DNA from: Candidatus Poribacteria bacterium | GTDB taxonomy: Bacteria; Poribacteria; WGA-4E; JAJDTR01 | Assembly: GCA_965222225.1 (NCBI GenBank) | Contig: CBDCTK010000002.1 | Span: forward strand, 4,736,001 to 4,800,000 | Direction of reading: 5' to 3' | Length of the DNA: 64,000 nt | Part shown: piece after piece, positions 7,511 through 57,123 of the stretch | Layout: every line of letters begins with the position of its first letter | How positions within the stretch are numbered: the stretch's first letter is position 1 | Program-made: the position numbers and the translations under genes | Notes under the pieces: generated by a model | Seen by the model: the letters and a program-made list of their open reading frames with translations, nothing else | What the model was told of the DNA's origin: nothing | Databases searched by the model: none

Positions 7511-7753
7511 GAGCCTGTTTGAATAATCGGTGGCAAAGCCATTTTGGTCATTTGTAGAAAGTTTCTTCATGTTTTCATTGTTGGCTGCTACATACCTATG
7601 GGATCCCTATCGCACTCGCTATCCACTCGCTTGAGCGCTGCTGGCGCTTTCAAAGGCTGGTAGGATTTCTATCGCGCTCATTATTCATTCGCTTGATCGC
7701 AGGGGATCTCTATCGCAGTCATTATTCATTCCTTTGATCGCACCCTACAAACT
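7511..7753. mobile_element. IS5-type MITE, truncated copy with one TIR
   Basis: Begins TTA|GAGCCTGTTTGAA and is a near reverse complement of 44149-44411. Similarity ends near 7753, before the second TIR. Confidence 0.8.
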
Positions 7754-7865
7754 ATGTCATCGTCCGCGGCGGTTAGAAACCAGCAATCTTTACGCTTCCA
7801 TTGCCATATTTCCTCACATAATGTCACATAATGTCACAATTTTTTAATTTATCTTATCGCGCTAA

Positions 7866-8752
7866 GATCCTGTTTGAAAAAGAAGAAAGTTGTCTGAAGG
7901 GTTGATGATTACGTTTACTCATTGGAGCAGTTCATTCTGAACCAATGAAAGGAGTAAACATCAACCGCACGAGTTATCCCAGTGATTTGACCGATACACA
8001 GTGGGAGAAACTGTTACCATTTCTGCCAACACCTCAACCCTTAGGCAGACCTCTCAAGTGGGAGATGTGTTTAATCATCAACGCCATCTTTTATGTCGTC
8101 AAGTCCGGTTGTCAGTGGCGAATGCTACCCCATGATATGCCACCGTGGCAAACCGTCTACTACCGTTTCAGAAAGTGGAAAGCCGACGATACATGGCTCT
8201 TGATTCATCAGGCACTTCACGAACAAACACGTTGCGATGCTGGCAAAGAACCATCACCGACAGCAGCTATCATCGACAGCCAATCCGTTAAGACGACGGA
8301 ATTAGCGGCGACTAGAGGATTTGATGGTCACAAGAGAGTCAAAGGACGCAAACGACATCTAGTAACTGATACGATAGGTGTTCCATTGATAGTCAAAGTC
8401 ACTGACGCCAATGTCAGTGACAATCAGATAGCTATTGAATTACTAACAGAAGTGTTTAGCTGGTACATAACAATTCAGTTGGTGTGTGCCGATGCTGCCT
8501 ATCGCGGAGAATTAGAAGACTGGTTATATCTAGCTCATCAGTGTCAACTGGAGATTGCATCTACGCTAGGGCAGCAGGGGTTTGAAGTTGTCCCGTTACG
8601 ATGGATTGTTGAACGCACATTTTCTTGGCTTGGCTGGTTTCGTCCATTGACTTTGGATTATGAACGCTATCCTAAGACTGCTCAGACCATGGTGTACATC
8701 GCTTCCATTTACTTGATGCGAAACCGAGTCAAATGACTTTTCAAACAGGCTC
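7866..8752 (+). mobile_element. IS5-family insertion sequence (IS1031-like)
   Basis: TIRs GATCCTGTTTGAAAA at 7866 and TTTTCAAACAGGCTC ending 8752; TWA flanks (TAA / TTA). Confidence 0.88.
7945..8736 (+). CDS. IS5-family DDE transposase
   Basis: YPSDLTDTQW, GCQWRMLP, IIDSQSVK, ADAAY, RWIVERTFSWL. Confidence 0.95.
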   Translation: MKGVNINRTSYPSDLTDTQWEKLLPFLPTPQPLGRPLKWEMCLIINAIFYVVKSGCQWRMLPHDMPPWQTVYYRFRKWKADDTWLLIHQALHEQTRCDAGKEPSPTAAIIDSQSVKTTELAATRGFDGHKRVKGRKRHLVTDTIGVPLIVKVTDANVSDNQIAIELLTEVFSWYITIQLVCADAAYRGELEDWLYLAHQCQLEIASTLGQQGFEVVPLRWIVERTFSWLGWFRPLTLDYERYPKTAQTMVYIASIYLMRNRVK

Positions 8753-8781
8753 TTAACAAAATAATCGAGAAATGATATAAT
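8753..8781 (+). promoter_or_regulatory. Putative sigma70 promoter for the aldolase gene, abutting the IS5 right end
   Basis: TTAACA (8753-8758), 17-nt spacer, TATAAT (8776-8781) with an extended-10 TG. Confidence 0.5.
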
Positions 8782-8917
8782 GCCTTGCACACCTGAAAAT
8801 ATACATCGGAGGAGGTTTTCTGTCAACGATATTCGCTGTCGGATAGTTTGTGTCCTTTTGCGAAAACCATCTTTGGTTTTCAGGAAATTCCGAAATTCAA
8901 CTTAGGAGACCACTGAT

Positions 8918-9727
8918 ATGAGATATAATCGTGTGAGGGAAATTTTTAACTCGGATGAACTTCTGCTTGACACCCGCATGCACAGTCCATGGGGCAACGA
9001 AATTGACATGATTGGCTGTACCGCTCTGAACACCGTCCAGGTTGTCGCGGAGTACGGCGCGCTCGAAACCTTGGATTTTGAGAACCTGTGCCGTGCGGCA
9101 GAAGCCAACAACCTCGGCAAAATCATCAAGCTTGATAGCGCTGGCCAGGAACTCCGCGTTCAGAGGGCAATCGGCGCCGGATTTGAAGCCGTGGTTTTTG
9201 TGGACGTGCACGATCGCGCCGAGACTGAAGAGTGCGTGCGTATTATTCGCGCTTCAACGCCGGAGGATGATGGATTGAATCCGGTTCGACTGGTTCGGGC
9301 GTTCTATCCCGGGTATGGGGGCACGCAAGCCTATATCGACCAGCTGAGAGACATCGTGGTCATCCTCATGATTGAGAAGGCTGAAGCCGTCGAGAATCTG
9401 GATTCGATTCTAGAGGTTGAAGGCGTCGATGGAATAATATGGGGTCCCGGCGATTATTGGCAGAGCATGGGGCAGCCGGAAAAGAGGGGCACGGACGAAG
9501 ATATCGCCATACAGACGCAGGTACACCGTGCCGCGTTGGACCGGGGAGTCGAGCCAATCGTTGAAATCAACACGTTCGACCAAGCGGCACCGTGGCTCAA
9601 TATGGGAATCCGCATGTTCTCGTTGGGAACGACCGTAAGCATTCTTCACAAGTATTGGCGTGAACACGGCGACGGTGTGCGAGAACTACACGCTCAACGC
9701 AAGCAAACCGCCGCTGCTGCCGATTGA
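8918..9727 (+). CDS. HpcH/HpaI aldolase/citrate lyase family protein
   Basis: AEYGALE, ILMIEKAEAVENLDSILEVEGVDGIIWGPGDY. Confidence 0.85.
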   Translation: MRYNRVREIFNSDELLLDTRMHSPWGNEIDMIGCTALNTVQVVAEYGALETLDFENLCRAAEANNLGKIIKLDSAGQELRVQRAIGAGFEAVVFVDVHDRAETEECVRIIRASTPEDDGLNPVRLVRAFYPGYGGTQAYIDQLRDIVVILMIEKAEAVENLDSILEVEGVDGIIWGPGDYWQSMGQPEKRGTDEDIAIQTQVHRAALDRGVEPIVEINTFDQAAPWLNMGIRMFSLGTTVSILHKYWREHGDGVRELHAQRKQTAAAAD

Positions 9728-9756
9728 TGCTAGGATGATTCCTACCAGCGGTCTGG

Positions 9757-12517: not shown

Positions 12518-12578
12518 GATGATTCACCCGTGCTCCCATTCAAAACGGCAATGAAGTTTGACTCAACTTCCTTCTCTT

Positions 12579-12911: not shown

Positions 12912-12970
12912 AGATTCTCCTTCCTTGTAGGGTCGGATTGGCAATCGACAGATCGCCCATACGAAGAGAC

Positions 12971-13110
12971 CGATACTAGCCATTGCCCTGCACACCAACC
13001 TGGGTAGGCGGGGATCAAGCAAGCGAATAGCACGTCGATAGAAATCCCCTTGCCCCGGATTGGAAAGATTTGATTGACGCTAGTAGTGGACTGCAAATAT
13101 AGGGAAATAG
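12971..13110. repeat. ~140-nt dispersed intergenic repeat, copy A
   Basis: Reverse complement aligns with 25066-25205 (TATATTT.CAGT..A.TA.TAGCGTCAATCAA...CCCGCCTAC...TTGGTGTGCAGG..AATGG.T.GTATCG); contains a 35-nt-type unit. Confidence 0.8.
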
Positions 13111-13112
13111 AA

Positions 13113-13844
13113 TTAGTTAGGACCGTCTAGCATCACACGCAAGAGCGGCAATTTGTCCCTGTGTTCGTTTACAATCGGGTTGTCGGCGGTGTTGTCCTCG
13201 GGATGCGGGGTTGGGTTGCTCCATCCCTGATAGTGTCCACCCCAGATGTGACGCCGCGTCCCGCCAGTCCCGCGCCGGGAGCAATGCCAAACAGCGGTGT
13301 CAAAGATAACCGCTGATCCGGGCGACATAACCACTTCCTCTTCGCCTTCCCATACTGCCTCTCCATCGCCCTTTGCGTCAACTGAGTCGTTCAACCGCCG
13401 TGGAAGCACAATGAGAGGACCGATTTCGCGGTCGGATCCGTCTACATAGATACCGCAAAGGATCCGCTCGGGATTCTCGCGTTGCAAACCGGTTGGCGGA
13501 ATCTCCCAGGCGTAGTGGACGTGCCATGAAGTCAAGATAGGTTGAGTAGGGGCGTTTCCGAAGACTGCCGCGCCAGTGTGCGCAAGTCGAACATCGTCTT
13601 GAAGAACTTCCTCCATCGCATCGACTAGAATGGATTTCACGAAGAAAGGCGCCATTTCCGGACCTAACTCCAACAGCGGGTGAAATCCTATTGTGGACTG
13701 TTCCGCAGAGAACCCTCCCCTTTTGTCGCACAGTCCCTTAAAAATCGTGCGAATCTGGTCGCACTCCTTTTCATCGCATACTGACTCAATCAAACAATAG
13801 CCGCGTTCTGCCACCTCGCGAGCCTTTGACTTTAGGTCAATCAT
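13113..13844 (-). CDS. PhyH-family dioxygenase-like protein with HxH in place of HxD (paralog 1)
   Basis: ERGYCLIE, WHVHYAW, PGSAVIFDTAVWHCS; 243 aa from ATG 13844. Confidence 0.85.
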   Translation of the reverse strand: MIDLKSKAREVAERGYCLIESVCDEKECDQIRTIFKGLCDKRGGFSAEQSTIGFHPLLELGPEMAPFFVKSILVDAMEEVLQDDVRLAHTGAAVFGNAPTQPILTSWHVHYAWEIPPTGLQRENPERILCGIYVDGSDREIGPLIVLPRRLNDSVDAKGDGEAVWEGEEEVVMSPGSAVIFDTAVWHCSRRGTGGTRRHIWGGHYQGWSNPTPHPEDNTADNPIVNEHRDKLPLLRVMLDGPN

Positions 13845-13948
13845 CCGTACCACCTTTCTAACGAAGTGTGTAGACGCAAATAGCGATGATTCACCCCTAC
13901 CTGCGCCCGAAATTAATAACAGGTCTTGAGACAAGGATTTATGGCGGA

Positions 13949-24966: not shown

Positions 24967-25065
24967 CGGGAGGGCTCACATCGGACAGCCTAGAGGAGGT
25001 TCGACGATTAGGAACACTTGACACCCGATTCAGTGCGCCACGGTATTCCGAAACGGGTACTCATA

Positions 25066-25205
25066 CCATTTCTCTATATTTACAGTGCATTAATAGCGTC
25101 AATCAAGTCTCTCCGAAGCGGGGCAAGAAATCTCTATCGCACTCGCTGTCCACTCGCTTGATTCCCGCCTACGGGGTTTGGTGTGCAGGATAATGGTTGG
25201 TATCG
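25066..25205. repeat. ~140-nt dispersed intergenic repeat, copy B
   Basis: Inverted homolog of 12971-13110; contains a 35-nt unit at 25129-25163. Confidence 0.8.
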
Positions 25206-25282
25206 ATCTTTTCACAATAGTATAATTTTGGACATCAAATGCCACATTATTCAATCGAAATGGTATCACAGGGGAGACGCCC

Positions 25283-27780: not shown

Positions 27781-27969
27781 AACCCAAGTTGCCACTTACA
27801 AGATTTTAGACATGCACCGCCGTTTTTAATTGAGAACAGTTCATTAATTGCGGAGATTTCGTAGCGCAAGGGATCTCTATCGCGCCCGTTATCCACTCGC
27901 TTGATCTGTCAGTTTGCGCATCACAAACACAATCTAATAGACTGTGCTACAAAGGTGGCAACTTGGGTT
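27781..27969. mobile_element. 189-bp MITE of a second family
   Basis: Perfect 15-bp TIR AACCCAAGTTGCCAC / GTGGCAACTTGGGTT, flanked by an AAAT direct repeat; no ORF. Confidence 0.82.
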
Positions 27970-28015
27970 AAATATATCCCCTCCACATTTTGTCGCACAT
28001 GCGGTAGACCGCTAT

Positions 28016-41760: not shown

Positions 41761-41836
41761 ATCATTTCACAATCACCGAAGAATTTATACTCCTCAAGGC
41801 TGTCAAAAAACAGAAGGGAAAATTTCACAATCGGTT

Positions 41837-42568
41837 TTAGATTACTTTTCTTTTATGCCACATTCGATCGAAGTTGTCTTTCGGCACAAAACCAAGAATC
41901 CGTTTTGCTTTCTCATTGGAGAATTTTTGGTGCGGCAAATCGGCAAAGATATTGAAGGTTTCGCAGCGTGACGGAAGTGCCGAGAGGTCAATCTCCAGTC
42001 CAAGTCGCAATGCTTCTGCAGCGTCTCGCCAACTGACGCTGAACGGGTTAAGATCGGTCCCCTCGCTGTCATCATTGTGTTCACGGAAACTGAGAAAAAG
42101 ATAACACAGAAGATAGATGTTGTAGTTTTCCGTGAACACCTTACAAATCTCTTGCCCAAGCCCCTTTGTTAGAGCGTACAGCAGTGTGCCGGGATGTGAC
42201 GGAACCTCCGGACTTAACTCAAAGTCATAGTCGGTATAGGAATCTCCTGCGACGGTCCAGTGCGGCCCGGTGTTGATTACCCTTCGAATGCCGTGTTCCG
42301 CTGCGGCGCGCATCATGTTATAACACCCGCGCGTGCTCACATCGAAGGCGAGTTGCCTATCATCCCGAAGAACGGAACAATTGATGATTGCGTCCATGTT
42401 TTCTGCGGCTCGCATGACTTCATCCGGACAAGAGACATCAACCCGTATGGACTCATGTTTTGTTTGAATGGGTCTGATGTCCGTGAGTCGCAGCTCGTAG
42501 TGCGATTCCAGCGCTTTTACTACATGAGGGCCCAAATAGCCATCTGCTCCTAGTATTAAAACCTTCAT
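41837..42568 (-). CDS. NAD-dependent epimerase/dehydratase (uronate dehydrogenase-like)
   Basis: ILGADGYLG, YALTK, KAKRILGFVP. Confidence 0.85.
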   Translation of the reverse strand: MKVLILGADGYLGPHVVKALESHYELRLTDIRPIQTKHESIRVDVSCPDEVMRAAENMDAIINCSVLRDDRQLAFDVSTRGCYNMMRAAAEHGIRRVINTGPHWTVAGDSYTDYDFELSPEVPSHPGTLLYALTKGLGQEICKVFTENYNIYLLCYLFLSFREHNDDSEGTDLNPFSVSWRDAAEALRLGLEIDLSALPSRCETFNIFADLPHQKFSNEKAKRILGFVPKDNFDRMWHKRKVI

Positions 42569-43004
42569 CTGTTGCCTCCGAACTAACGGCAAGATTACAT
42601 CCCAATATCACGAATTATGCAGTCGCTTAGCAATACAGTATAATGTCATTTTACGCACTATCGCCATTGAAAGCAAGAAAAATCCGATTTAGAACACGTC
42701 TCGCAACTGTAGACATCCGGGATTGAGTTTGCAAAAGTACACCTGTTTTCGTCCTTGAACAGGGGCTTGACAGTTTACATCTGCACATATTTCGTGGTAT
42801 ACTAATACCTATAATGAATGCATTCCATTTTCCGATAATTTGCTTTCGTCTGCCAAAGCGATATATGCGCTAGACTGTGGTTCGTTGGTTTTACGGTTAT
42901 TCGTCAAAACGGATAGACATGCCGTCCCGAGACGGTTTATTCCAATCCCAGTCAATCATTCTAATCGTAGTATTTTGCGGTTGACACGAAAGAGGTAACT
43001 AGCC

Positions 43005-44027
43005 ATGCAACGCTTGAACGCTACCCCGATCTTTCTTCCAATCCTGACGTTGCTCTTGGTCGTCGCCATAGCATACTCGGTGAACGCCGAATCATATACT
43101 TCCTCCATCTGGTCAATCCAATTTAGTCCTGATGGAAGCCAACTTGCCGTTGGGCGCTACCAATGGGTACAACTGTGGGACCTTGGTTCACGCAAAGTGA
43201 TCCAAGATTTGGAACCACACTCTGATGCTGTGAGATGTCTGAAGTTTGCGGATGATGGCAACACTCTGTTCGCTGGCGGAGGTCTGCCGGCACAGAACGG
43301 CGAACTCCATGTCTGGGAGATTGAGTCCGGCGAACAAATTCAAGTCGTAGATTGCCATGCGGACACGATTGAAGCCGTCGCCGTGAGTGCCGATGGTTCC
43401 AGAGTTCTCACTGCGAGCATGGATGAACATGTTTCTGTGATCGCGCTTGACAGTGGTGACATTGAGCGAACCCTTACTCAACATATTGACCGCGTGTTCG
43501 GGATTGATTTCCGCACAGACGGTAAATATTTTGTCACGGGTGGAAAAGACAAAACAGTGAAGATTTGGAATGCTCAGACCTATGAAGTGCTAGTGAACTT
43601 CGACCAAAATGACGCTGCGGTCTATTCTGTCGCGTTTGCTCCCGAAGACAATATGATTGTCTCCGGATCTGCCGACACAGTTCTCCGTTCGTGGCGCGTA
43701 ACTGAATCGGTAACCGAATCTGGAAAACTTCAGACACAGGGAGCGCTAGTTCGGGTTTATAATGGACATCAAGGGGCTGTTTACGCGATTGACTGCGGCA
43801 TGAGAGACAACCAAGTTATTGTGGTATCTGGCAGTGCGGATAAATCGGTCATTGTCTGGAATTTGCGTTCTGGCGGTCGCCTCTACACGTTTGCCCAATC
43901 GACTGACGAAATCTACACGGTTGATTTAAGCGCTGACGGCAGGTTCGTTGCTGCCGGCGGTCGCGATGGAATAGCCCGAATTTGGGATCTATCGAATGGA
44001 GAATTGGTTGCGGCATTGACCGAATAA
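43005..44027 (+). CDS. Secreted WD40-repeat protein
   Basis: Signal peptide; repeats such as GGKDKTVKIWN, GSADKSVIVWN, GGRDGIARIWD. Confidence 0.92.
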   Translation: MQRLNATPIFLPILTLLLVVAIAYSVNAESYTSSIWSIQFSPDGSQLAVGRYQWVQLWDLGSRKVIQDLEPHSDAVRCLKFADDGNTLFAGGGLPAQNGELHVWEIESGEQIQVVDCHADTIEAVAVSADGSRVLTASMDEHVSVIALDSGDIERTLTQHIDRVFGIDFRTDGKYFVTGGKDKTVKIWNAQTYEVLVNFDQNDAAVYSVAFAPEDNMIVSGSADTVLRSWRVTESVTESGKLQTQGALVRVYNGHQGAVYAIDCGMRDNQVIVVSGSADKSVIVWNLRSGGRLYTFAQSTDEIYTVDLSADGRFVAAGGRDGIARIWDLSNGELVAALTE

Positions 44028-44148
44028 CGGATGTATGCACAGCAACTCGACGCGCATGAAGCGAAGGATTTTGAATGTTCAGAGGCAAGAGGATGTTTCG
44101 CAATCCGATTGCGGGAAATTAGATATTGGCACAAGGATTACACATTAA

Positions 44149-44411
44149 GGGCCTGTTTGAAAAGTACAGTTTGTAGGGTGCGATCAAAGGAATGAATAAT
44201 GACTGCGATAGAGATCCCCTACGATCAAGCGAATGAATAATGAGCGCGATAGAAATCCTACCAGCCTCTAAAAGCCCCAGCGGGGATCAAGCGAGTGAAT
44301 AACGAGTGCGATAGGGATCCCACAGGTATGTAGCAGCCAACAATGAAAACATGAAAAAACTTTCTACAAATGACCAAAAATGGCTTTACCACCGATTATT
44401 CAAGCAGGCTC
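44149..44411. mobile_element. Complete 263-bp IS5-type MITE
   Basis: TAA|GGGCCTGTTTGAAAA...TTCAAGCAGGCTC|TAA. TIRs match the IS at 7866-8752; carries three 35-nt units. Confidence 0.88.
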
Positions 44412-44466
44412 TAAGTGACAGAGCAGGAAAAATGAACCGCCCAAACAGATTAGAGGAGATTGTACA

Positions 44467-47415: not shown

Positions 47416-47488
47416 TTTTTGGCACACACAACTACGATACCCGTGTGCACGATTCTGTGCACTCGTAGAAATCAACTAACCGAATTCG

Positions 47489-47510
47489 GTAGGAGCGATC
47501 TCCTGATCGC
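47489..47510 (+). repeat. GTAG-type REP-like hairpin
   Basis: GTAGGA-GCGATC-TCCT-GATCGC. Confidence 0.65.
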
Positions 47511-47666
47511 GACCTCATGTTGCAACCGGGGGACAATCTCAACCAATCAATTGAGCGGATAGCAAGGACGATAGAACCTCCACTATCGTCAACCACACCG
47601 CCCCCATTCTTGCTTTCGTTTTCTTTCGCATGACGAACCATGCATTAGTCTTGGGAGACAGCTTAA

Positions 47667-48797
47667 ATGAGCACCGATAGCGCAGCGCACGATCAGAGTG
47701 CCGCTTACATCCGTGATGGCGAGCGTATGGCGTACCAGCTTGGTAATCGCGGTCCACTAAAATTCAATCCCGATGGCACAGCAGACAGAGCAATCTTGGA
47801 TGCTTACTGGCATTTCGGCTTCTATGTGTTTCAGGGCGCCGTAAAGGCTGACGAACTGGTGGAGTTGCAGACAGAGTTGGAGCATGCCTTTGAGCGTGCC
47901 CCGTACACCAAGGATGCCCTTTTAGACTCCCGGGGACGGTCTGCCATTGGAACCGAATCTGAGCGGTCGAGTTTTCGTTTCTCGAAGCCGCTGAGCGATC
48001 CCGATGGAGGCATGGGGCGTCACCCCGCCAAAATGCTGGTACCCGAACCGCCGCCTGACGCGCCCGATTACGTAATTTCCGGAATCTCCGGTCCTATACA
48101 GCTTCTGGACTCCTGCTTTAGGCTCTACGGCCACCCCCATCTGCTGTCCATCACCGAGCAGATAAATGGCTCCGACTTCACCCCGTTCTCCGAGTCGATG
48201 ATCGTAAAGCCGGCGGGCTTGGGGCCATCGGTGGCATGGCATCAGGACGGCACCACGCACTGGGATAAAGATGATTTGGACGAAGGCACTCACGGATTTA
48301 ATTTCATGTTTCAGTATTACGGAAGTACCGCGGCTAACGGTGTCTGGGTGCTTCCGGGATCACACAAACTGGGCAAACTCGACATAATCCAAATGATAGC
48401 CGACAATAATGGATCGGATCGCCTGCTCGGGGCGGTGCCCATGGTCTGCGATCCTGGCGACATCGTCATTTCCAACCGCCAACTGTTGCACGCATCCTTC
48501 CCAAATGACTCGCCCGACAAGCGAGTGACGTTCAACTTCGGTTTTCACCGCCGATCTTCGATACTAAATGTCCGGCGTAAAAGGCAAGACAAGCCCGACC
48601 TCGTCTACGACGAAGAGCTCGTCATTCAAAGATCACGTATGATTGCCCTTGCGATAGATGCCCGGCAGCAACGATTCCCGAATGAACCTCGGTACGTTTA
48701 CAAGCCATTGGCTGGACAAGAAGACTCCAATCGGTGGAGCGAGGAGACGCGGGAAAGCATCCTGAACAACCGCAGTCTCATTAACTTGAGTATTTAA
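47667..48797 (+). CDS. PhyH-family dioxygenase (long form)
   Basis: WHQDGTTH, NGVWVLPGSH, LHASFPN. Confidence 0.9.
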   Translation: MSTDSAAHDQSAAYIRDGERMAYQLGNRGPLKFNPDGTADRAILDAYWHFGFYVFQGAVKADELVELQTELEHAFERAPYTKDALLDSRGRSAIGTESERSSFRFSKPLSDPDGGMGRHPAKMLVPEPPPDAPDYVISGISGPIQLLDSCFRLYGHPHLLSITEQINGSDFTPFSESMIVKPAGLGPSVAWHQDGTTHWDKDDLDEGTHGFNFMFQYYGSTAANGVWVLPGSHKLGKLDIIQMIADNNGSDRLLGAVPMVCDPGDIVISNRQLLHASFPNDSPDKRVTFNFGFHRRSSILNVRRKRQDKPDLVYDEELVIQRSRMIALAIDARQQRFPNEPRYVYKPLAGQEDSNRWSEETRESILNNRSLINLSI

Positions 48798-48815
48798 GCT
48801 CGACTTTGTACATTT

Positions 48816-48958
48816 GTAGGGTGGGCACTGCCCACCAGCCTTTGAAAGCCTTTTCCCCGTGAAATATGTCCTGTAGGAGCGAGCTCCAGCTCTCGATAAC
48901 AACCCGCTCTCCGCAAATGACCAAAAAATGGCTTTGCCGCCTATTTCAAACAAATCCT
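48816..48958. repeat. Cluster of GTAG REP-like hairpins plus an IS5-MITE end remnant
   Basis: GTAGGGTGGGCACTGCCCACC (48816-48836); GTAGGAGCGAGCTCCAGCTCTCG (from 48873); CAAATGACCAAAAAATGGCTTT...TTCAAACA (48914-48952) resembles the MITE terminus. Confidence 0.65.
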
Positions 48959-49033
48959 ACGGAACTACACAATATATCGAAAGGGTTGAGCGCTCCGGGG
49001 TTAGTGAACGATATGCCGTTGAAACAGGAAACA

Positions 49034-51382
49034 TCACTCTGACTTCCGATTGATTTGAGCAATCCCGTCTGTCATAACCGCTCTGATTTGGTCGTTACTC
49101 AGTGCCTCACTAAAGATTGCAACCTCGTCAATAACACCGTTAAAAAATTCTCCCGGTGAATCCTTACTGCGCGTGCCAATCACACAATAGGGGGCGCCGG
49201 AATACTTGATTTCTCCATTAAACACGTAGGCAAAAACCACTTCGCCGTCAATATAACCTCTTCTCATGCCGCCGTCATACGTGATTGTCATGTGATGCCA
49301 CTGGTGCAGTCGCAGTGCGCCTGAAAGAAACTCCTTATTCTCGGCGTTGATGGCTATCCAAAAAACGGGTTCGCCCTGCACTGCGCCCAATCCCAAGCTC
49401 CTCCATGGAGGAGCCCAACGCGGCGAATCATCAAAAGGAAGCGTGACCGCCGACAAACCGCTATCCTTATCGGTGTGCACCTTTATCCATGCCATCATCG
49501 TCCCTTTCGGAATTCGCAACACCTGGGCGTTTCCGCAGTCCACATAATCATCTACGCCGTCAAACTGCAATGCGGCGCCGAACCTGCCTTCAACCCATTT
49601 AGGATTTCCCACCAGTGCCCCATCGCTATTATTGCGCGAGGAATCTTTGGCTATATTTCCTTCTCCCTCATCGAAACCCCATATTCCTACGACAGTTCGC
49701 GGATTGATCTTGTCCTCTCTTGGTGTTGTAGGCGTCATCCGATACAGTACGTAGTTCTGGAGGCTTTCCCGCACAACTGAAGGTTCAAACACTTTCACCT
49801 CCGTGAGCGAGTGTCTTGCCTGAAGCTCCTTGGGGAATATCCGTCCCGAAACGACCAAGATATCCTCTCTCCGCTCACTACTCAATCTCTGAATCTCCTG
49901 AAGAACCTCCTCGGTAGATAATCCCCTTCCTCTCGCCCATGCCTCGTCCCACGGAATGAAAGATCCGAATCGTTTTGTCCGTGGATAGTAAAAGTTGTCC
50001 TTCTCTAAATATCCAAGGATTTCCAGTGTCACGTCATCTGGCGGTTCTGCCGCAACAATCATTTCGTCCAGATTTTCGGATTTGATGAATTGAGCAACTG
50101 CCTTACCTCCCGAAAAAGGATATTTGTAGTCCATTATCGCCGCGGCAACGCCGCCGACCAGATGAAGCACGAGGAACACGGTGAGAACTACACCAAGATA
50201 TCTAGCCAATCCCAAACTGATTCCATTTAGGCGATTAACCAAATCAAATTTCAACTTTGGAAAGTCCCGGCAATAATGGCACAGCCAGTTTGCAGCGATA
50301 AACGCCATGAAGAGAAAACCCCAATGACGTATAAATCCGAAGCGTTTTGAGTAAAACAAAGCCAAGAGACCAATAGTTCCAAACAGATACATTAGGAAAG
50401 CCATAGGTTTCCTAATGAAAAGGAACAGTGCGAAAAGGAGGATAAGTACGGCTAAGACGTATTTGACTTCATGCGCGGCAGGAAGCCTGTCTAGGAGATA
50501 GGTGTTCCAAAAACGCAGCGTGAATTCCGGTATCGGGAGGAACGCTTTGGGCAAGATATTCAGGACATTCAGAAAGTGATTCAACTCGAACTCCGTCCTC
50601 CACCCCGGAAAAATCCCTTGGCTCGGACCGGATGGCTTCAGTTGGACAATCGCCGTCACAATCCCAAACAAAATCAATCCGAAGCCGATTCCAATCTCTT
50701 TTCTGGGTGGTCGCTCAGTGTCAGTCATAATCTCCCAGCATAAGCCAATGCCAATGGATATTACGATGATCAACGCATGTACGCTGGTATGAGCCATCAG
50801 CAGAAGGATGAAGCCTAAAAGAGGTAACCTTGTTTTCCAGCTCCGAAAAAGCGCGCAGAAAACGAAAAGCAATAGCACTCCCAAGGCATAGTTTCTACAG
50901 AGAATAGCGTATTCATAGAAGGGCAGATATCCAAACACGAAAAGCGTTTTCTGCAGCCGCGTGAAAGGCGAAAATCTCAAGAAGACATACGCCGAGATGG
51001 TTGCTATAATGAGATGAAAAGGCTGCATGATGATGGGTGACTGCGTGATAAGTTTTAAAGCGTAAAGGCAGATATGCCATAAACCGGGGTGCCCGTCATA
51101 TCGATTAAGGTGGTACAGGATTTCAATTGGTGAGGCGCTGTCCCGTGCAATCAGCCATGCCTGCATTTCATCTCTCCACATTTCGTGGTGCCAGGCGATA
51201 AGGCCTCCGAGAAGCAGAAAGAGTGCCGAAACCGCCATTGCGTAGGAAGAATCGGATAATTGCGGCAGGATGTTCTCTTGATGACTTCGACTATTGACCG
51301 TATCCGGTTGTGCAGATGCCATTGTCCTGTTTCCTCTAACCGCGTCTTGTAACCTCGGCTTCATCCACTTGTAGCGCGGCAT
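49034..51382 (-). CDS. Polytopic membrane protein (GT-C glycosyltransferase-like) with C-terminal LamG domain; start may be 51322
   Basis: HEMWRDEMQAWLIA, YDGHPGLW, many TM segments; LamG FNGVIDEVAIFSEAL. Confidence 0.78.
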   Translation of the reverse strand: MPRYKWMKPRLQDAVRGNRTMASAQPDTVNSRSHQENILPQLSDSSYAMAVSALFLLLGGLIAWHHEMWRDEMQAWLIARDSASPIEILYHLNRYDGHPGLWHICLYALKLITQSPIIMQPFHLIIATISAYVFLRFSPFTRLQKTLFVFGYLPFYEYAILCRNYALGVLLLFVFCALFRSWKTRLPLLGFILLLMAHTSVHALIIVISIGIGLCWEIMTDTERPPRKEIGIGFGLILFGIVTAIVQLKPSGPSQGIFPGWRTEFELNHFLNVLNILPKAFLPIPEFTLRFWNTYLLDRLPAAHEVKYVLAVLILLFALFLFIRKPMAFLMYLFGTIGLLALFYSKRFGFIRHWGFLFMAFIAANWLCHYCRDFPKLKFDLVNRLNGISLGLARYLGVVLTVFLVLHLVGGVAAAIMDYKYPFSGGKAVAQFIKSENLDEMIVAAEPPDDVTLEILGYLEKDNFYYPRTKRFGSFIPWDEAWARGRGLSTEEVLQEIQRLSSERREDILVVSGRIFPKELQARHSLTEVKVFEPSVVRESLQNYVLYRMTPTTPREDKINPRTVVGIWGFDEGEGNIAKDSSRNNSDGALVGNPKWVEGRFGAALQFDGVDDYVDCGNAQVLRIPKGTMMAWIKVHTDKDSGLSAVTLPFDDSPRWAPPWRSLGLGAVQGEPVFWIAINAENKEFLSGALRLHQWHHMTITYDGGMRRGYIDGEVVFAYVFNGEIKYSGAPYCVIGTRSKDSPGEFFNGVIDEVAIFSEALSNDQIRAVMTDGIAQINRKSE

Positions 51383-51791
51383 TGGTAATCGTCAAATCAC
51401 TAATTTCTTGACTCACTGCGATCCGCTGAGCAAACAACGAAGGCGATAGAACTCCCATAGAGATTCCTTCAACCGCTCCGAATCGCGACAGGTCTGTCAA
51501 AACAGAGCGCTGTCGAATCCGATTTCCTCCCTATTAGCAAGAGAAAATCGTTAATCTATCCATAGGTTAATACTCTCAATGTCTCCTTGGTCTGGCAGAT
51601 AGAAAAAACGCCAGAATCATCTTGTTGCAATAGCTAACTCGACAGCCACTCCGGAGCAATCGCACCTGACGGTAGAAGATCGACCGTGCGACTGGATCAA
51701 GGCACCGAATGGGGCGCGTGAAAAAATCTCTCTGCAATTATAAAATCGCGAACTTGCCTTCTTAGATGGAATATTCTCTTGCTTGCAATAG

Positions 51792-51863
51792 AAGCCCTGG
51801 AGGGGCGATAGGTGTATAGTAGTTGATACCCCATACTACACCAGCCCCAGCGGGGGCGACAGG
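51792..51863. repeat. Pair of AGCCCC..GGGGCGACAGG REP-like repeats
   Basis: AAGCCCTGGAGGGGCGATAGG and AGCCCCAGCGGGGGCGACAGG. Confidence 0.6.
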
Positions 51864-52085
51864 CAGGTGCTTGGCTCGTGGTGCCAATCCTCAGCCATCA
51901 AATCGTTGATTTCCTTCGGTGATTAGAAAATCACCGAGAAGATCTCATCTGCGATTTGCCGATTGCAAATCCCTCTTCTCTTCCCATTGCACATCTCGTC
52001 TAGAGAGAGGTAGAGCGCTTTCCACACCCCAAAACCAGATGCGATTCCTCTGTCAGCCATCTCTAAAGGTTCCGACAAGCGCGAA

Positions 52086-52772
52086 TCATTTCTCCAATAA
52101 ATCCAGACATGACTTAAATCGACGGTCATGGTCCGCAAACTGTTTTAACCACTCAACAACTGTTTTGCCATCGCTAAGTCTAGCTTGTATATCTGCGCCA
52201 TTTTCCACAAGAAATTGAGTGGTTTCTACGTGTCCATGACCGGCTGCACAGTATAGGGGAAAGTGTCCGTGATCTGACATCGCATTCGGATCTGCACCGC
52301 AAGAGACCAGTTGTTCCACAATGTCAAGGTCACCGTTTCGAGCAGCATGGTGCAAGGCTGTATCGCCTCGGGCGTAGCGTTCTCGTGTTAGCCCTGCGTT
52401 GTCACTGAGGATGGCGTTTACCCGCGGCACATTGGCTAAGAAAACGGCATAGATAAACTGCCGTGCGAGTTCGGTTGATGGCTTGGTATGCGCATCCAAC
52501 CCGCCGTACGCAACGAGCAATGCTACGACTTCCTTGTTGTCTGGTACTTCCCCGGCATAGTGTACAACATAGCCATCATGAACTGCCAAATCGGCACCAC
52601 AATCTATCAGGTATTTGACAACATCATAATGGCGTCTTAGTCCGGCGTGAAAGATGGGACGCCAATCGTATTTGTCATCTTGATCGACTAACCTCGGGTG
52701 TTGTTCGACAATTTTCTTCACTGCATCAAGATCGCCGCTTGCTGCCGCGTCATGAATTGAACCGACTTCCAT
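52086..52772 (-). CDS. Ankyrin-repeat protein
   Basis: GDTALHHAARNG, GHFPLYCAAGHG. Confidence 0.92.
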   Translation of the reverse strand: MEVGSIHDAAASGDLDAVKKIVEQHPRLVDQDDKYDWRPIFHAGLRRHYDVVKYLIDCGADLAVHDGYVVHYAGEVPDNKEVVALLVAYGGLDAHTKPSTELARQFIYAVFLANVPRVNAILSDNAGLTRERYARGDTALHHAARNGDLDIVEQLVSCGADPNAMSDHGHFPLYCAAGHGHVETTQFLVENGADIQARLSDGKTVVEWLKQFADHDRRFKSCLDLLEK

Positions 52773-52882
52773 ATCTATTCTCCATGTGTTGGAAGATTTG
52801 AGTTTTCTTCAAGGGAAAAAGCTCGAATTCAATGTGGAGTCAAGGTGCTGTTAGCTAATGTGCTACCGGGCTTGTCGACGGG

Positions 52883-53419
52883 TTATCCAAAGGGCAAAAT
52901 CGCGCTAGTGGCATATCGCCAACCGCGGATTATTGAATCCGCGCGTGTTGACCATCGGTCATCCAGCACCGCACTCTTCTTGTCTTTTCCACCCGAAACT
53001 TTCAAAAAATTGCCCTTCCGATAGTTTTCGAGCGCCTGCCTAACATAAGGCACCATATTGACGGGTAACTCGTGGAAAGAATGCCAGGATAAATCATCAC
53101 ATTTGTCCGGCTCTGCGTTGACAATGCTTCCGTTCCATCTGGAGGCGGCAAGAAAGAAATCCATCCGTTCATCCTCTCCAATCCTGTGCATAACCCCGAC
53201 TACTTCGATGTCCGAGGGCTGAATTTCAATTCCCGCCTCTTCCTTCGCTTCTCGGATTGCCGCTGCCTTCACCTCCTCGTTACCGTCGATGTGACCGGCA
53301 ATCACGCTGTAATTCCCATCCTCATAACCGGTGTTAAAACGTCTCAAGAGCAGGACTTCATCCTCGTTGTTCGTAAGAAAAATATGCACCGTTGCAATCA
53401 ACTTGAATTTGTCAGGCAT
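52883..53419 (-). CDS. NUDIX hydrolase; C-terminus possibly extended by a poly-T frameshift near 53008
   Basis: GHIDGNEEVKAAAIREAKEEAG Nudix box; EPDKC. Confidence 0.88.
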   Translation of the reverse strand: MPDKFKLIATVHIFLTNNEDEVLLLRRFNTGYEDGNYSVIAGHIDGNEEVKAAAIREAKEEAGIEIQPSDIEVVGVMHRIGEDERMDFFLAASRWNGSIVNAEPDKCDDLSWHSFHELPVNMVPYVRQALENYRKGNFLKVSGGKDKKSAVLDDRWSTRADSIIRGWRYATSAILPFG

Positions 53420-53583
53420 CTTTGCGCCTCATAGACAAAGCACTTAATCAGGAAACGCGAATGGTGTAACACCTCGGCACATGCGTGCAACTCATCGCTC
53501 GTCAACCACCGCTCCCGTCGTTGCCATCCAACGTATTCACCGCCTGCCCTATGTAACGGTTGAACGCAGGACAACAATTCAAC

Positions 53584-53889
53584 TTATTTAGGCAATTTCT
53601 CCATCTGAAGGTGCATAGGATCGTCATTGACGACGACAAATCCCAGCCTCTTGTAGAAGGCAATGGCACGGGCGTTAATCTTTAGCACCCGAAGCATCAC
53701 GGGCTTTTGTTCTAGGTTAGCATTGTTGGCAATCCGTGTCATGCACGCTGATCCAATTCCTCTGCCTTGGTATTCGGGAAGGATGAACAACTGATGCAGC
53801 TTAACCGCCTCGGAAGTGCTAGACGTTGCAAAGAAACCAACGTCGGTGCCACAATACTCGATAATGCGGAAATCGTGTGAAGCAAACCT
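53584..53889 (-). pseudogene. GNAT acetyltransferase, 5'-truncated
   Basis: The frame extends upstream as RFASHDFRIIE...LHQLFILPEYQGRGIG...AIAFYKRLGF, with no intact N-terminus. Confidence 0.7.
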
Positions 53890-53979
53890 GGCGTTCTGTT
53901 ACCTTCAAACACCGCTTCAGATGAATTTTTTTTCTTGGTTGCTCAAGTCATGTTAAACGTCCGTGCGGATATGTTCTTT

Positions 53980-54324
53980 CTAAGGCATCTGAGTAAATGA
54001 AATCACGTGGGAATCGAAAAAACGTCCTTGGAATTCGGTCAACGCCCTAATCTTGTCTGCTCCATACCGGTCTACATACCGTGAGACAACCAATTTATTC
54101 TCGTTGTCATCATTGCGGAGGATGATTCCAATGACAACCCCTTCGTAGGAGTCGAGAGGCTCAAATTCCCCTAAAACGTAGGCATCAATCTCCTCTCCAT
54201 CCTCGGCGAGGGTACTGGGAATATACCCGTAGTTGACAGGATAGATGAATCCGTGTTCAGGATGCCTAGACCCCATAGGTCTGTCAATTATCACTTTTAC
54301 TTTGGAATTAGCACGATCCCACAT
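53980..54324 (-). CDS. Small inorganic pyrophosphatase-like protein
   Basis: YPVNYGYI, DGEEIDAYV, DDNENKL. Confidence 0.85.
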   Translation of the reverse strand: MWDRANSKVKVIIDRPMGSRHPEHGFIYPVNYGYIPSTLAEDGEEIDAYVLGEFEPLDSYEGVVIGIILRNDDNENKLVVSRYVDRYGADKIRALTEFQGRFFDSHVISFTQMP

Positions 54325-54421
54325 TGTGTATTATAATTACCAAACAACCTCTGTCAGTTGTGCGCCCGCACATGCGGAAGTCGAAACGTGTGAACGAAGC
54401 GCGGCGATAACCTCACTATTA

Positions 54422-55129
54422 TTAGCTGTGCAGTCTCCTGAGTTCGGGGTTTAGGCGAAATCCTTCTTCGCGCCTTCGCCCCACTTCTTCCCAAGTAGTG
54501 TCACACTCGACAAAACGTATCAAGACATCCTTTGCCCTGGAAAGAATGGGTTTCCCGTGACCGAAACATAAAGCATCGAACTCAAAATGTAGAAGACTCT
54601 TGAGGGAGAAGCGTGCTTTGGCGAGGTCTACAAGGTATGCCGGATCTTTGAATCCTAACTCCCCATCAGGAATACCGCAATCCTTCCTTCCGCCACTCAT
54701 AAGGTCCCCGACGATTAAAACACCATCCGGTATCAGATAAAAACTGACCTCCTCACGATGCCGAACATTTGGTACACGAACCGCCTCAATGAGATTCCAA
54801 AGCACATCGCTATCTTGAAATGTACCTGCGAACTCTATTTCGGCGCCCTGCATATGCTTCTCATAGAGCAGAACCTCACAACCCCATTTCTGCCTGAGTT
54901 GTGCAGAATTCCTCTCGTGATAGTCACAGGTCAATATTGTATGGGTCGGGACACCGAGCGCTTCCATTTGCTTGACCTCAGCATCTGAAAGAGGAAGGGG
55001 ATCAATCAAGGCTCTCACTTGTGACTGATCATCATGAACCAAGAAGCTGTTCCAAGGATAGGATTGATTTCGGGAAGCGCCGTGTATCTCGCTCCACGTA
55101 AGTAGATGAGGGGTCAATCGAAGCAACAT
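54422..55129 (-). CDS. Metallo-beta-lactamase-fold protein
   Basis: LIDP, ILTCDYHER, LIVGD, LCFGHG. Confidence 0.75.
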   Translation of the reverse strand: MLLRLTPHLLTWSEIHGASRNQSYPWNSFLVHDDQSQVRALIDPLPLSDAEVKQMEALGVPTHTILTCDYHERNSAQLRQKWGCEVLLYEKHMQGAEIEFAGTFQDSDVLWNLIEAVRVPNVRHREEVSFYLIPDGVLIVGDLMSGGRKDCGIPDGELGFKDPAYLVDLAKARFSLKSLLHFEFDALCFGHGKPILSRAKDVLIRFVECDTTWEEVGRRREEGFRLNPELRRLHS

Positions 55130-55270
55130 GATGGTCGCTCAAAGAAGAGAATCTGCCGGTCTTTTGCAAACAGTCTTCCTGCATTATGACTATTGCTTTC
55201 AAGCTAACGAATGCCAAGCGGCATGAAATGGAAGAACAACAAAAATCGTACTGGTGCATGAAGCGGTTTA

Positions 55271-55768
55271 TCAGGCTGTTGCGGTTTTCCCCTGTTTCAC
55301 GCGCTTCGAAATCCCAATCTCTTCTGGACATCCGGGGTTGTCTGTTTTCGATCGCTTTTACACGCTGAATCCGCGCTTCCGATAGAAACGCCTCGTTGAG
55401 TTGTAGGGTTCGTAGTCCACACTGTCCCCGAGTGTATAAGTTGCAAGTTCATCTATTCCCAAATCTCGCGCTTTCATTTCCGCGGCTGCTAGAAGCCTAG
55501 TGCCAATTCCCGGCTTATGAAATTTCCTGGCAACCCTAAGCCACCCGATGTGAAGCCGCCCCTCTGCCACGTACAGTGTCAAGAATCCCACCACCTTTTG
55601 GCCAGAAACTGAAACAAATCCCTCCTGATGACGTATGTCAACAGGGATTGATTTAGCCCTCGCAGTCTCGTCAAACCATTCAGGTAGGCTTTCCGCAACT
55701 GCGAGAATTCCAGGATGATGTTTCTCTTCCAAGGGTAGGATTTGGGTCAAGTTCGGTTGGTCTTGCAT
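55271..55768 (-). pseudogene. GNAT acetyltransferase with probable premature TAA at 55358-55360
   Basis: PGIGTRLL, RRFYRKRGF; the frame continues KRSKTDNPGCPEE...* to TGA 55271. Confidence 0.65.
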
Positions 55769-55926
55769 ATAGTCAAATTCATCTTGGGTGGTGAAATAAT
55801 GGTTATATTAATCCAGTATTTCAAATTACCAATCTGATGAACTAGGTTTCCTGAAGGGGCGACGCACAAATGTCGCGCAACGGCAACTGTCGATAGCGAT
55901 CGTTGCTGCCATCAACGGGAATTGCC

Positions 55927-56487
55927 TCAACTGCACTCTTTAGGATGATTGGCAAGCCACTCCCGCTTCGTCAGTTGAAATCCGCGGAACGGTTCATCCT
56001 TGAACTTGGGAATATCAGAGACATATTCACCGGTTTCCCGAAACCCGTTTTTTTCAAGCACACGCGCTGATGCGGGGTTTCGCCTCAGGCAATTCGATCG
56101 AACGATATCCATTCCGAGTTCGCAAAATGCGTAACGGAGCGCGAGCGCAACGGCATTGGTAGTAATTCCCTTGCCCCAGTGGGACACGGCAATTGCATAA
56201 CCACATTCGAGACTTCGATTTTCACGATCGATTGAACGAAGGTCGAGAGCTCCAATCAGCTCGCTATCAGCAAGGATGGCAAAGTAAAACGCCTCCCTAT
56301 TTGCATGCGCTTCAACTGCCTCCTTGACAAAGGCCTCACCGCCATCTGGGGGATAGGGTTGGGGGATTGTCGTCATGCGAGCCACGCGTTCATCCGACGC
56401 GTAGCGTTGTACTGCTTCGGCATCGCCAAGCTGCAATGGACGTATTGTAACCTCTGGTTTAGTTATCATGATTTGTGCATCGTGCAC
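55927..56487 (-). CDS. GNAT acetyltransferase, RimJ/RimL type
   Basis: ECGY..HWGKG, NPASARVLEKNGF. Confidence 0.9.
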   Translation of the reverse strand: MHDAQIMITKPEVTIRPLQLGDAEAVQRYASDERVARMTTIPQPYPPDGGEAFVKEAVEAHANREAFYFAILADSELIGALDLRSIDRENRSLECGYAIAVSHWGKGITTNAVALALRYAFCELGMDIVRSNCLRRNPASARVLEKNGFRETGEYVSDIPKFKDEPFRGFQLTKREWLANHPKECS

Positions 56488-56506
56488 CTAGAGATACTCT
56501 TGGCAC

Positions 56507-57123
56507 TTACCTAGGACGGTAATCTTCCTTCTTTACCATGTATTTCGTCTGTACAAATCCAAAGTCGAAAACGGTCGTACGCATGTGGACCAAGCTAATG
56601 CTTTTCTCTAAAGAGCCGAAGAGCGGTGTCCCGCCCCCAAGGATAATGGGGATTATCGTCCCCGGGATTTCATCGACCAAACCCACGGAAAGACACCGTT
56701 GAATTGTAATTCCGCCATCAACGTATACACGCTCCGCCCCTTCATCTGGGAGCCTTTTTCGAGGAGATCCTGTGGTGCGTCCGATGAATGCGTGACAGTT
56801 TTCAGCACATTTGGCGGTAGAGAGATCGCGTTACGACTCGGAACAACAACTGGCTTCCCCTCATGAGGCGATTCACCGAAGGACAATACCGTTTCATAGG
56901 TTTTTCTACCCATGATGATTGTGTCGACCGAGCCCAAGAACGTCTTGAAGCCGCAATCTTAGTCAGTCGGAATGACAGCGTTTGATGGAATCTCTATCGC
57001 AATCGCTATTCGCTCATTTGATCTATCCACTCGCTTAATCGTCAACCAGTCGAGGTCGCCGTCTTTCCCAGGGATGAACCCATCCAAACTAGTTGCGATG
57101 TAGGCGAATACTCTGACGGGCAT
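56507..57123 (-). pseudogene. Dihydrofolate reductase/RibD-C family pseudogene
   Basis: MPVRVFAYIATSLDGFI..DLDWL, interrupted by a repeat at 56989-57040, then an in-frame TAA, MGRKTYE, a frameshift, and VYVDGG..IQ..PIILGGG.PLF. Confidence 0.85.

Follow-up and report, generated by a model that had tools for sequence, protein, structure and literature searches.

The 64,000-nt stretch analysed here, hereafter the window, corresponds to C2:4736001-4800000 of a Candidatus Poribacteria assembly (G000; 5.70 Mb, 2 contigs, 50% G+C) and carries 12 copies of a repeated, non-coding unit of about 35 nt. The original prediction had described this unit as a GATC-bounded element of fixed length that interrupts hairpins and a gene. 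All 13 of its coordinates (12 copies and a half copy) bear the motif, its consensus is matched three times in the window at <=3 mismatches versus none in 100 shuffles, and a profile built from the 12 copies (41 columns, including 3 flanking bases per side) recovers exactly those 12 within the window. Our analysis of this genome and its relatives confirmed that the unit is a real, abundant and lineage-restricted micro-element. Below, R denotes the strand as read in that prediction and G the complementary strand.

Three copies lie in a composite repeat (7505..7753, +) made of a non-GTAG “type-1” repetitive extragenic palindrome (REP) and a GTAG REP. The copy at 7602..7636 (+; nhmmer E 1.6e-9) sits in the type-1 REP (..ACCTATGG|unit|..GCTGGCGCTTT), the copy at 7664..7698 (+) occupies the 5' arm site (GGTG^CGCAG) of the GTAG-type REP, and the copy at 7705..7739 (+) occupies a second site (CAGTG^CGCAC) of the same REP and is followed by GCACCCTAC. 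As had been proposed, the composite recurs inverted at 44168-44417 (94.4% identical over 250 nt). It holds the counterparts of the copies at 7705 (44182..44216, -), 7664 (44223..44257, -) and 7602 (44285..44319, -), the last again in a type-1 REP (ACCTGTGG|unit|CCCGCTGGGGCTT). The copies at 13013..13046 (-; 34 nt) and 25129..25163 (+) reside in a REP of the GGGGCAAG..CCCGCCTAC family, and the repeat said to be shared by the two is indeed present (12963-13117 versus 25059-25213, 77.6% identical over 156 nt). The former copy overlaps a rhamnose-mutarotase open reading frame (ORF) solely at its nominal TTG start. The copy at 27872..27906 (+) lies inside a MITE (miniature inverted-repeat transposable element) of ~200 nt bounded by terminal inverted repeats (TIRs; about 27775-27975), other copies of which are without the unit.

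Two diverged copies are found at 47545..47579 (-), in the gap between two co-directional genes, and at 51420..51454 (-). An RNA-library contig bridges the first, which cannot show transcription. The uninterrupted host palindrome reported near 51843 exists as an empty type-1 REP at 51842..51862 (-; AGCCCCAGCGGGGGCGACAGG on the + strand), and a second empty type-1 REP lies at about 51793-51817; the empty type-1 REP copy in the window carries one extra G. The copy at 56989..57023 (+) is located within a pseudogene (56507..57153, -), previously read as an interrupted DHFR-like ORF, that belongs to the RibD_C family (DHFR-like fold), and it is abutted by a 17-nt 3' half-unit (TATCCACTCGCTTAATC) at 57024..57040 (+).

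Searching the whole assembly with the profile yielded 200 matches at E<=1e-8, 809 at <=1e-4, 1056 at <=0.01 and 1623 at <=10. Since 712 of the 809 copies align without an indel and 84 have one extra base, the fixed length that had been claimed is real. The R-strand consensus of the 712 ungapped copies is (G)GGAT(C/T)TCTATCGC-NN TC NN-TAT(T/C)C-NN TC NN-TTGAT(C). The unit measures 35-37 nt and has no features other than a 17-nt hairpin with a conserved flank on either side. Across the 712 copies, 23 positions are nearly invariant and non-stem positions are 93-99% identical; the named core bases (TCTATCGC..TC..TAT.C..TC..TTGATC) are 87-99% conserved, most of them 97-99%, while each of the eight N positions is split roughly evenly among two or three bases. 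The direct repeat seen earlier in the core is true (TATCGC-NNTCNN / TATYC-NNTCNN). The GATC boundaries hold only in part: the 3' GATC is 91-99% conserved, with a second GAT(C/T) 31 nt upstream, but the inserted piece reads GGAT..TTGAT, with the final C of the 3' GATC supplied by the target, and just 58% of copies have C as the fourth base of the 5' GATC.

The core had also been called non-palindromic, which is contradicted by a stem between positions 16-21 and 27-32 (antiparallel) made up of four covarying pairs and two fixed mismatches. Counted over the 712 copies, pair 17-31 is CG in 340, GC in 174 and TA in 127; pair 20-28 is GC in 363, AT in 206 and CG in 84; pair 16-32 is AC in 203, AT in 176, GC in 146 and CG in 140; and pair 21-27 is CG in 326, TA in 263 and CA in 94. 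The mutual information of the four pairs amounts to 1.0, 1.0, 0.65 and 0.43 bits, and Watson-Crick pairing reaches 66-93% versus 31-49% after shuffling. The pairs are separated by the invariant T18.C30 and C19.T29, which are never complementary and form a 2x2 mismatch that reads T.C/C.T on R and tandem G.A/A.G on G. An independent set of 71 copies (69 distinct) from metagenome-assembled genomes (MAGs) of other Poribacteria, picked by a pattern that leaves the stem unconstrained, has 82.6% of its stem cells paired versus 55.1% after shuffling (reached by 0/500 shuffles) and a covariation score of 0.80 versus 0.28 (slid controls <=0.19), figures that are not probabilities because unit copies are not independent lineages. 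The 712 copies contain 182 stem combinations, nearly all compensated, so they cannot stem from a few amplified masters.

Stem cells that are not Watson-Crick pairs are overwhelmingly A.C/C.A on R, that is, G.T wobbles on G, and the wobble counts favour the G strand here (330 versus 43) and in other genomes (41 versus 6). The designed stem energy, calculated with RNA parameters, favours the same strand (-0.75 on G versus +2.85 kcal/mol on R, a gap of 3.6 kcal/mol), although the stem is weak there too. We rejected the stem bases as a guide to target choice, as the mutual information between stem and flank is <=0.07 bits versus 0.43-1.0 within the stem. A cyanobacterial HIP1 context was likewise rejected (GCGATCGC is present once in the window). 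The Rfam scan of the window gave 0 matches at the gathering threshold, and the tRNA scan found nothing.

Filled and empty versions of the same host site could be compared within the genome. We removed 35 nt in silico from each copy and sought the joined flanks elsewhere in the assembly: a paralog that spans the joint without gaps exists for 104 of 912 copies, or for 56 once those whose flanks or matches overlap a unit are dropped. A loose boundary scan was not sharp, owing to nested copies. With exact 8+8 junction identity, 14 copies have an empty paralog. Six of these have a unique solution (model positions 3-37, GGAT...TTGAT, 35 nt, between host G and C), four give GGGAT...TTGA (35 nt; with a 2-nt ambiguity in three of them), another two gain 34 nt, and the last two are odd nested cases. 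On the right, every junction reads TTGAT|C, the host C being the start of the hairpin or of its 3' arm (R orientation). None of the 14 exact filled/empty junctions has a target duplication, and the unit has no ORF and no TIR beyond its GATC-like ends, in agreement with what had been read from the window. The unit is added whole at the feet of hairpins, with a net gain of 35 nt and without target duplication. As a discrete insert of this kind it does not correspond to an insertion scar, which had been offered as an alternative. The unit does not always lie in a hairpin loop; its place is the 5' foot, either of the hairpin as a whole or of the hairpin's 3' arm.

The hosts comprise at least 8 unrelated REP families, a MITE, other unit copies, CRISPR (clustered regularly interspaced short palindromic repeats) repeats and the RibD_C-like gene. 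Sites include GGCTGGTG^CGCAGTG^CGCACCCTAC (two sites in one REP), GGGCTAGAAG^CCCGACCTAC, GGGGCAAGATG^CCCCGCCTAC, CGGAGA^TCGCTCCTAC, GGGAATAAC..GTTATTCCCTAC, the type-1 REP (CTATAcACCTGTCG^CCCCGCTGGGGCTT) and the ~200-nt TIR MITE. In GTAG-type REPs the unit is usually on the ...CTAC strand (CTAC follows <=24 nt downstream in 301/912 copies), and the reverse arrangement also occurs. Self-nesting is common, the inner unit lying after TCTAT of the outer one with CGC replaced. Solo 3' halves outnumber solo 5' halves (536 versus 198) because units land in units after TCTAT. One congener (G008) has a tandemly triplicated REP module with two copies empty and one filled.

Polarity between species is available only at the RibD_C-like gene. 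The three nearest genomes compared are only 80-93% identical in coding DNA, and their intergenic gaps contain differing repeats, indicating turnover. The G005 ortholog of the RibD_C-like gene is intact (175 codons) and without the unit: its anchors are separated by 6 nt, compared with 57 nt here, a net gain of 51 nt. The C-terminal fragment of the window pseudogene scores 29.1 bits with Pfam RibD_C, and this DNA query detected no ortholog in any of the other 8 congeners. The gene is broken in three ways relative to G005, by the 51-nt unit insertion, a GAA-to-TAA nonsense mutation and a +2 frameshift. Empty-site alleles thus exist, as paralogs in unrelated hosts and as the G005 ortholog, and together with self-nesting they uphold the earlier view of an ultra-short mobile unit that targets hairpin DNA. 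Its mobility is well supported. In four public runs covering window positions 41000-60999, whose contigs break at repeats, no filled and empty alleles of one site could be made out. Some joints leave out a unit, for example from 44220 to 44260 with 39 nt replaced by GCGC, and these most likely derive from paralogous copies because their sides are 18-21 letters long and their depth is high. No larger parent element bounded by unit halves stood out, the pairs spanning ordinary genes.

The largest cluster of units (15 copies) lies ~2 kb downstream of the genome's single cas1 (C2:2703012-2703836), inside the only array with the repeat GTAGCAACCATTGCCCCGAYGAAAAGGGGACTGAAAG (C2:2705500-2707790). This repeat is unrelated to the unit, and the units are irregularly spaced. 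We therefore rejected an identity of the unit with the CRISPR repeat, which the original prediction had named as a point to be checked; the unit instead interrupts that repeat. Eight array repeats are intact and 4/12 are split by unit-bearing inserts. On the left of the repeat's CCCC/GGGG hairpin the unit is R-oriented (8 junctions) and on the right it is G-oriented (8 junctions), so the foot-of-hairpin rule applies to both strands of a symmetric hairpin. The use of CRISPR repeats as hosts indicates that the target is the hairpin as such and not the REP. The colonised array may be partly inactivated. Array blocks of 180-240 nt, consisting of units and repeat cores, are themselves duplicated.

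According to a crude ORF map that places 82% of the genome in ORFs, 884 of 1056 copies (84%) are intergenic and 51 partly intergenic, and most of the 121 “genic” copies fall in ORFs of 100-120 codons that are made of repeats. Divergent gaps hold somewhat fewer units for their length (148 in 211 kb) than convergent gaps do (150 in 143 kb). In co-directional gaps, 290 units point in the direction of the genes and 347 in the opposite direction, so there is no preference for gene direction. R is the locally G-rich strand in 740/1053 copies, and unit orientation correlates with GC skew (r=0.37) and not with gene-strand bias (r=-0.08). This bias points to replication rather than transcription; if the G-rich strand is the leading strand, R is on the lagging-strand template. 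Empty REPs of this genome have a like skew bias (57-73% by family), which is thus a property common to these hairpin repeats. The cumulative GC skew of C2 has several turning points (near 0.8, 2.5, 3.0, 4.1 and 4.6 Mb), a pattern that suggests large inversions or assembly joins, and the orientation of units and REPs switches with the local skew along C2. Of the 784 unit clusters, 592 are single units. At C2:1578286-1578709, eight same-strand units with four successive 38-nt spacings are arrayed head to tail in tandem, whereas copies are usually solitary or nested.

To follow the unit in relatives, we applied a strict pattern (eight variable positions open, <=2 mismatches) to this genome and 30 relatives. 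The pattern occurs 938 times in this genome, 643-1369 times in each of 9/9 congeners and 195-213 times in each of 4/4 genomes of a second genus that belongs to another family. One sister-genus genome has 3 copies and the other 16 relatives examined have 0, as does the reversed-pattern control in every genome surveyed. A scan of one genome per species gave at least 100 stretches, and all 80 among the matches listed are from Poribacteria MAGs. The distribution is patchy because the sister genera of both unit-rich genera are without the unit (0-3 copies). The occurrence of 200-1400 copies in genera of two families would need repeated loss or transfer between co-resident sponge symbionts.

Candidate enzymes are few. 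Five PF01797 (Y1 transposase) matches were identified in the genome. The best (C2:3080255-3080728, 157 aa, with motifs DHIHIL and RYIKNQEAHH) scores 65.8 bits with NF033573 (IS200; cut-off 55) and lies below the cut-off for REP-associated tyrosine transposases (RAYT). Inverted units flank this gene and a Y1 remnant at 3560325-3560519. In total 98 ORFs have units on both sides, 18 of them in a G..R pattern, and a Pfam scan of 10 unit-flanked proteins found only the Y1 genes to be mobility-related. Homologs of the best Y1 occur in 19/31 relatives (1-4 copies each), where they are flanked by inverted type-1 REPs (CTATAcACCTGTCG plus GCCCC..GGGGC and variants). The REP stems change with the protein clade (GCCCC/GGGGC, CACTCC/GGAGTG, GCTCC/GGAGC and others), and judging from these sequences the family and its stem-varying REPs may constitute REPtron-like systems without a GTAG tag. 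The unit motif CTATCGC beside the stem resembles CT(G/A)TCG of the type-1 REP at a like position, directly 5' of the hairpin, and the site of this motif is the unit's favourite landing point, both in type-1 REPs and in units.

Known single-strand transposases offer a parallel. Passages of PMC8266576 describe that the Escherichia coli TnpA-REP requires a conserved 2x2 mismatch in the REP stem, of which the unpaired state and not the sequence counts, and that TnpA of IS608 and ISDra2 also read unpaired stem bases, the recognised substrates being folded single strands. In the part of PMC3333891 consulted, E. coli TnpA-REP is credited with low cleavage specificity (C|T), and it is proposed that single-stranded circles are excised and reinserted, possibly at the lagging-strand template. 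We lean, by a small degree, towards the unit being a non-autonomous mobile DNA of 35-37 nt that moves as a single strand, with an IS200/RAYT-like Y1 (HUH) transposase acting on it in trans. We draw the link to Y1 because the anatomy of the unit (hairpin, 2x2 mismatch, conserved motif) resembles single-stranded Y1 substrates, and movement of this type is what we infer to fit best. The unit would move as single-stranded DNA and a Y1 transposase would handle it in trans, recognising the hairpin with its stem irregularity and the adjacent conserved motif, and cutting and rejoining without duplication. The best candidate enzyme would be the IS200-like Y1 at G000:C2:3080255-3080728. Among the mechanisms named at the outset, HUH/RAYT is therefore the best anatomical fit.

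Several observations weigh against Y1-mediated movement. No Y1 gene is specific to the unit. The best Y1 differs from the unit in its distribution: it occurs in 3/3 genomes of a genus that has 0 units, and this query did not detect it in 2/4 genomes of the second unit-bearing genus. Around its orthologs in unit-free genera only the type-1 REP is found, and around its 65-70% paralogs a variant REP. GTAG REPs with lodged units border the remaining Y1 genes, both here and in the second genus. Because unit-free genomes keep the REP flanks, the type-1 REP is the cognate repeat of the best Y1 and the adjoining units are lodgers. Junctions of the unit on R are G|G and T|C and not C|T. The strand indicators conflict, wobbles and stem energy favouring the G strand and skew favouring R as lagging-strand template. 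The folding energy of the hairpin or of the whole unit is no better than that of shuffles on either strand, and it is accordingly something that reads pairs, and not thermodynamic stability, that preserves the stem pairing. On its left side the unit has a ragged junction, where G or A often stands in place of the adjacent host nucleotide(s); in HUH transposition both ends are normally exact.

A further reading is a self-sufficient “hairpin-seeking” DNA, in which the 17-nt stem-loop with its fixed 2x2 mismatch and ~18 invariant flanking bases would suffice for copying to the 5' foot of essentially any stable hairpin, among them REPs belonging to several unrelated RAYT systems, CRISPR repeats and the unit itself. 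The enzyme would then not be the cognate transposase of any host, and either several Y1 would be used promiscuously or an unrecognised enzyme would act; we regard this as possible but do not expect it. The ragged left junction, with 1-3 host nucleotides replaced beside a precise right junction, also suits replication-based copying, in which, during lagging-strand synthesis or repair, the unit is written at stalled hairpins from another copy through template switching or copy-choice, with no dedicated enzyme, the hairpin foot being a polymerase pause point. The orientation that tracks GC skew and not genes, the half-units and the 38-nt tandem runs are consistent with this, and at the RibD_C empty site GA|ATCAAACGC resembles the start of the unit's G strand, G|ATCAAGCG, so microhomology is possible there. 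However, most REP-hosted junctions are without microhomology, a single unambiguous cut is found in 6/14 exact empty-site matches, the length is fixed at 35 nt, and the invariance of 23 positions (93-99%) over ~700 copies while stems vary argues for sequence-specific recognition by a protein. Copying of this kind is rather unlikely in our judgement. The unit could also be a module of composite REP/MITE repeats that is not independently mobile and spreads by hitch-hiking, gene conversion and recombination, “empty” sites being deletions. Many copies do reside in multi-copy repeats (such as the 250-nt composite found twice in the window), whole composites come and go in intergenic gaps between species, and the four public runs yielded no strain-level allele pair. 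Yet the 35-nt piece is found in 8 or more unrelated host families that have no flanking sequence in common, in CRISPR repeats, in units and in a single-copy gene whose intact ortholog is without it, and exact 35-nt deletion from so many contexts is less likely than insertion, so we find hitch-hiking improbable.

The near invariance of non-stem positions in two genera would also be expected of a host-selected cis element, whether a binding site of a chromosomal or Dam/GATC-related protein or a structured RNA, with mobility secondary. The conserved 3' GATC with GAT(C/T) 31 nt upstream, the 84% intergenic location, the lower density in divergent gaps and the RNA-library contig spanning one copy agree with such a role. 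It has little probability in our view, considering the lack of an orientation preference relative to flanking genes, the missing Rfam match in the window, the stem-flank coupling of <=0.07 bits and the sister genera without the unit; regulation is implausible for copies in pseudogenes, CRISPR repeats and each other, and a protein-binding site does not account for the insertion behaviour. Very improbable, finally, is the use of other machinery, such as off-target integration of 35-nt “spacers” at cruciforms by Cas1-Cas2, an IS110-type bridge recombinase or insertion templated by a reverse transcriptase (RT). Spacers of this genome's array (35-39 nt) match the unit in length, the 15-copy cluster lies in the array close to cas1, and Cas1 is present in all 14 unit-bearing genomes searched. 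Against this, Cas1 integration produces a target duplication, which is not observed here, and the units lie inside repeats and not between them. Unit-free genera have Cas1 too (3/3 and 4/6 genomes), and for 3/10 unit-rich congeners this genome's Cas1 type is not listed; like RT, Cas1 is present and does not track the unit. No IS110 transposase was found in the genome, and the sole RVT_1 match is weak (27.5 bits).

Of the known systems, REPs and bacterial interspersed mosaic elements (BIMEs) with their RAYT (TnpA-REP) are among the closest to the unit (PMC3333891, PMC8266576, PMC3733652 and PMC2817692). As in the REP/BIME portions of PMC3333891 and PMC8266576, the unit is an intergenic imperfect palindrome of 20-40 nt at hundreds of copies; a short, high-copy, extragenic palindrome is found here as a 17-nt hairpin at 809-1623 copies, 884/1056 of them intergenic. 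It shares with E. coli REPs an invariant motif beside the hairpin and a conserved 2x2 stem mismatch (PMC8266576, in part). Further likenesses to the REP/BIME described there are the lack of target duplication, an expected strand-specific recognition of single strands and the several Y1 genes in the genome. Unlike REPs, the unit is without a GTAG/CGTC tag, the bases 5' of the stem being TCGC (R) and TCAA (G), and GTAG/CTAC near units are the host REPs' own. No cognate Y1/RAYT gene could be shown for it, it is mostly solitary (592/784 clusters) and not in inverted pairs, its stem is hypervariable within one genome, and it behaves as an insert of defined length (a 35-nt gain) in other REPs, in CRISPR repeats and in further units. 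The parts of PMC3333891, PMC8266576 and PMC6006769 consulted on IS200/IS605 “peel-and-paste” single-strand transposons and miniature elements derived from them show hairpins with unpaired stem bases and duplication-free insertion in fixed orientation by a short target, as seen for the unit. A link to the replication strand is also shared (PMC3333891 and PMC8266576, same passages), and the best Y1 here scores as IS200 family. The unit differs from the IS200/IS605 elements outlined in these sources in that it is a single hairpin and not a left and a right subterminal hairpin, has no transposase, targets the foot of another hairpin and not a fixed tetranucleotide, and has a ragged left junction.

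We rejected an identity with a MITE on the grounds that there are no TIRs beyond the GATC-like ends, no duplication at 14 junctions and no larger element bounded by unit halves. Elhai et al. are said to have described in 2008 (reportedly Genome Res 18:1484) the small dispersed repeats SDR1-8 of Nostoc punctiforme and relatives, ~21-27 nt long and inserted in other repeats and each other. These SDRs share with the unit a length under 40 nt, insertion in repeats and each other, restriction to a lineage, predicted hairpins and no known enzyme, and differ in phylum, sequence and size (35-37 versus 21-27 nt), a comparison made by description only. Passing mentions of Nostoc SDRs occur in PMC3116915 and PMC2884548. 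Beyond the Nostoc SDRs, a junction rule, a covarying stem with a fixed mismatch and a Y1/REP context are documented for the unit. IS1397 and ISKpn1 are examples of insertion sequences (IS) that target REPs. As in the part of Tobes and Pareja 2006 (PMC1525189) on such IS, REP hairpins are preferred landing sites of the unit; unlike these full-length IS with transposase genes, the unit is 35 nt long and non-coding. It may also be compared with palindromic elements that enter genes. Those of Rickettsia are 100-150 nt long and typically tolerated in functional proteins. Like them, the unit can lie in frame in a coding sequence (here a net 51 nt, or 17 codons, in the RibD_C gene), although its host gene is broken elsewhere too and genic copies are rare. 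Searches of the literature for Poribacteria with REP, MITE, palindromic or intergenic repeats, supplements being outside the search, returned nothing on these repeats.

The unit is one of the smallest mobile DNAs seen. To our knowledge, mobile DNA so small is barely documented, and we know of no mechanism for it. The family is large (~1000 copies in a genome), base-level junctions are known for it, natural variation exposes its recognition features (a stem that may vary as long as it pairs, with mismatch and flanks fixed) and candidate enzymes are few; given these traits, how little a DNA requires for movement could be tested with a handful of oligonucleotides and purified Y1 transposases. If the hairpin-seeking possibility were true, the unit would act as a hyperparasite on selfish repeats, lie close to the minimum size of mobile DNA and be capable of eroding CRISPR arrays. 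REP-nested units fill intergenic space and break short-read assemblies of sponge symbionts, and units disrupt CRISPR repeats and can land in genes.

Unit-bearing repeats in the window adjoin an IS4/IS5-type DDE transposase gene (7945-8736, +) and an IS1595-type transposase gene (57301-58155, +). Public-contig depth over 57199-58401 is several-fold above that of the neighbours, as expected for a multi-copy IS. Unit-bearing gaps also adjoin paralogs of PhyH (phytanoyl-CoA dioxygenase), in the window (13113-13934 and 47667-48797) and elsewhere (C2:2038980-2039786 and 2911307-2912590), and the PhyH family appears expanded in this genome.

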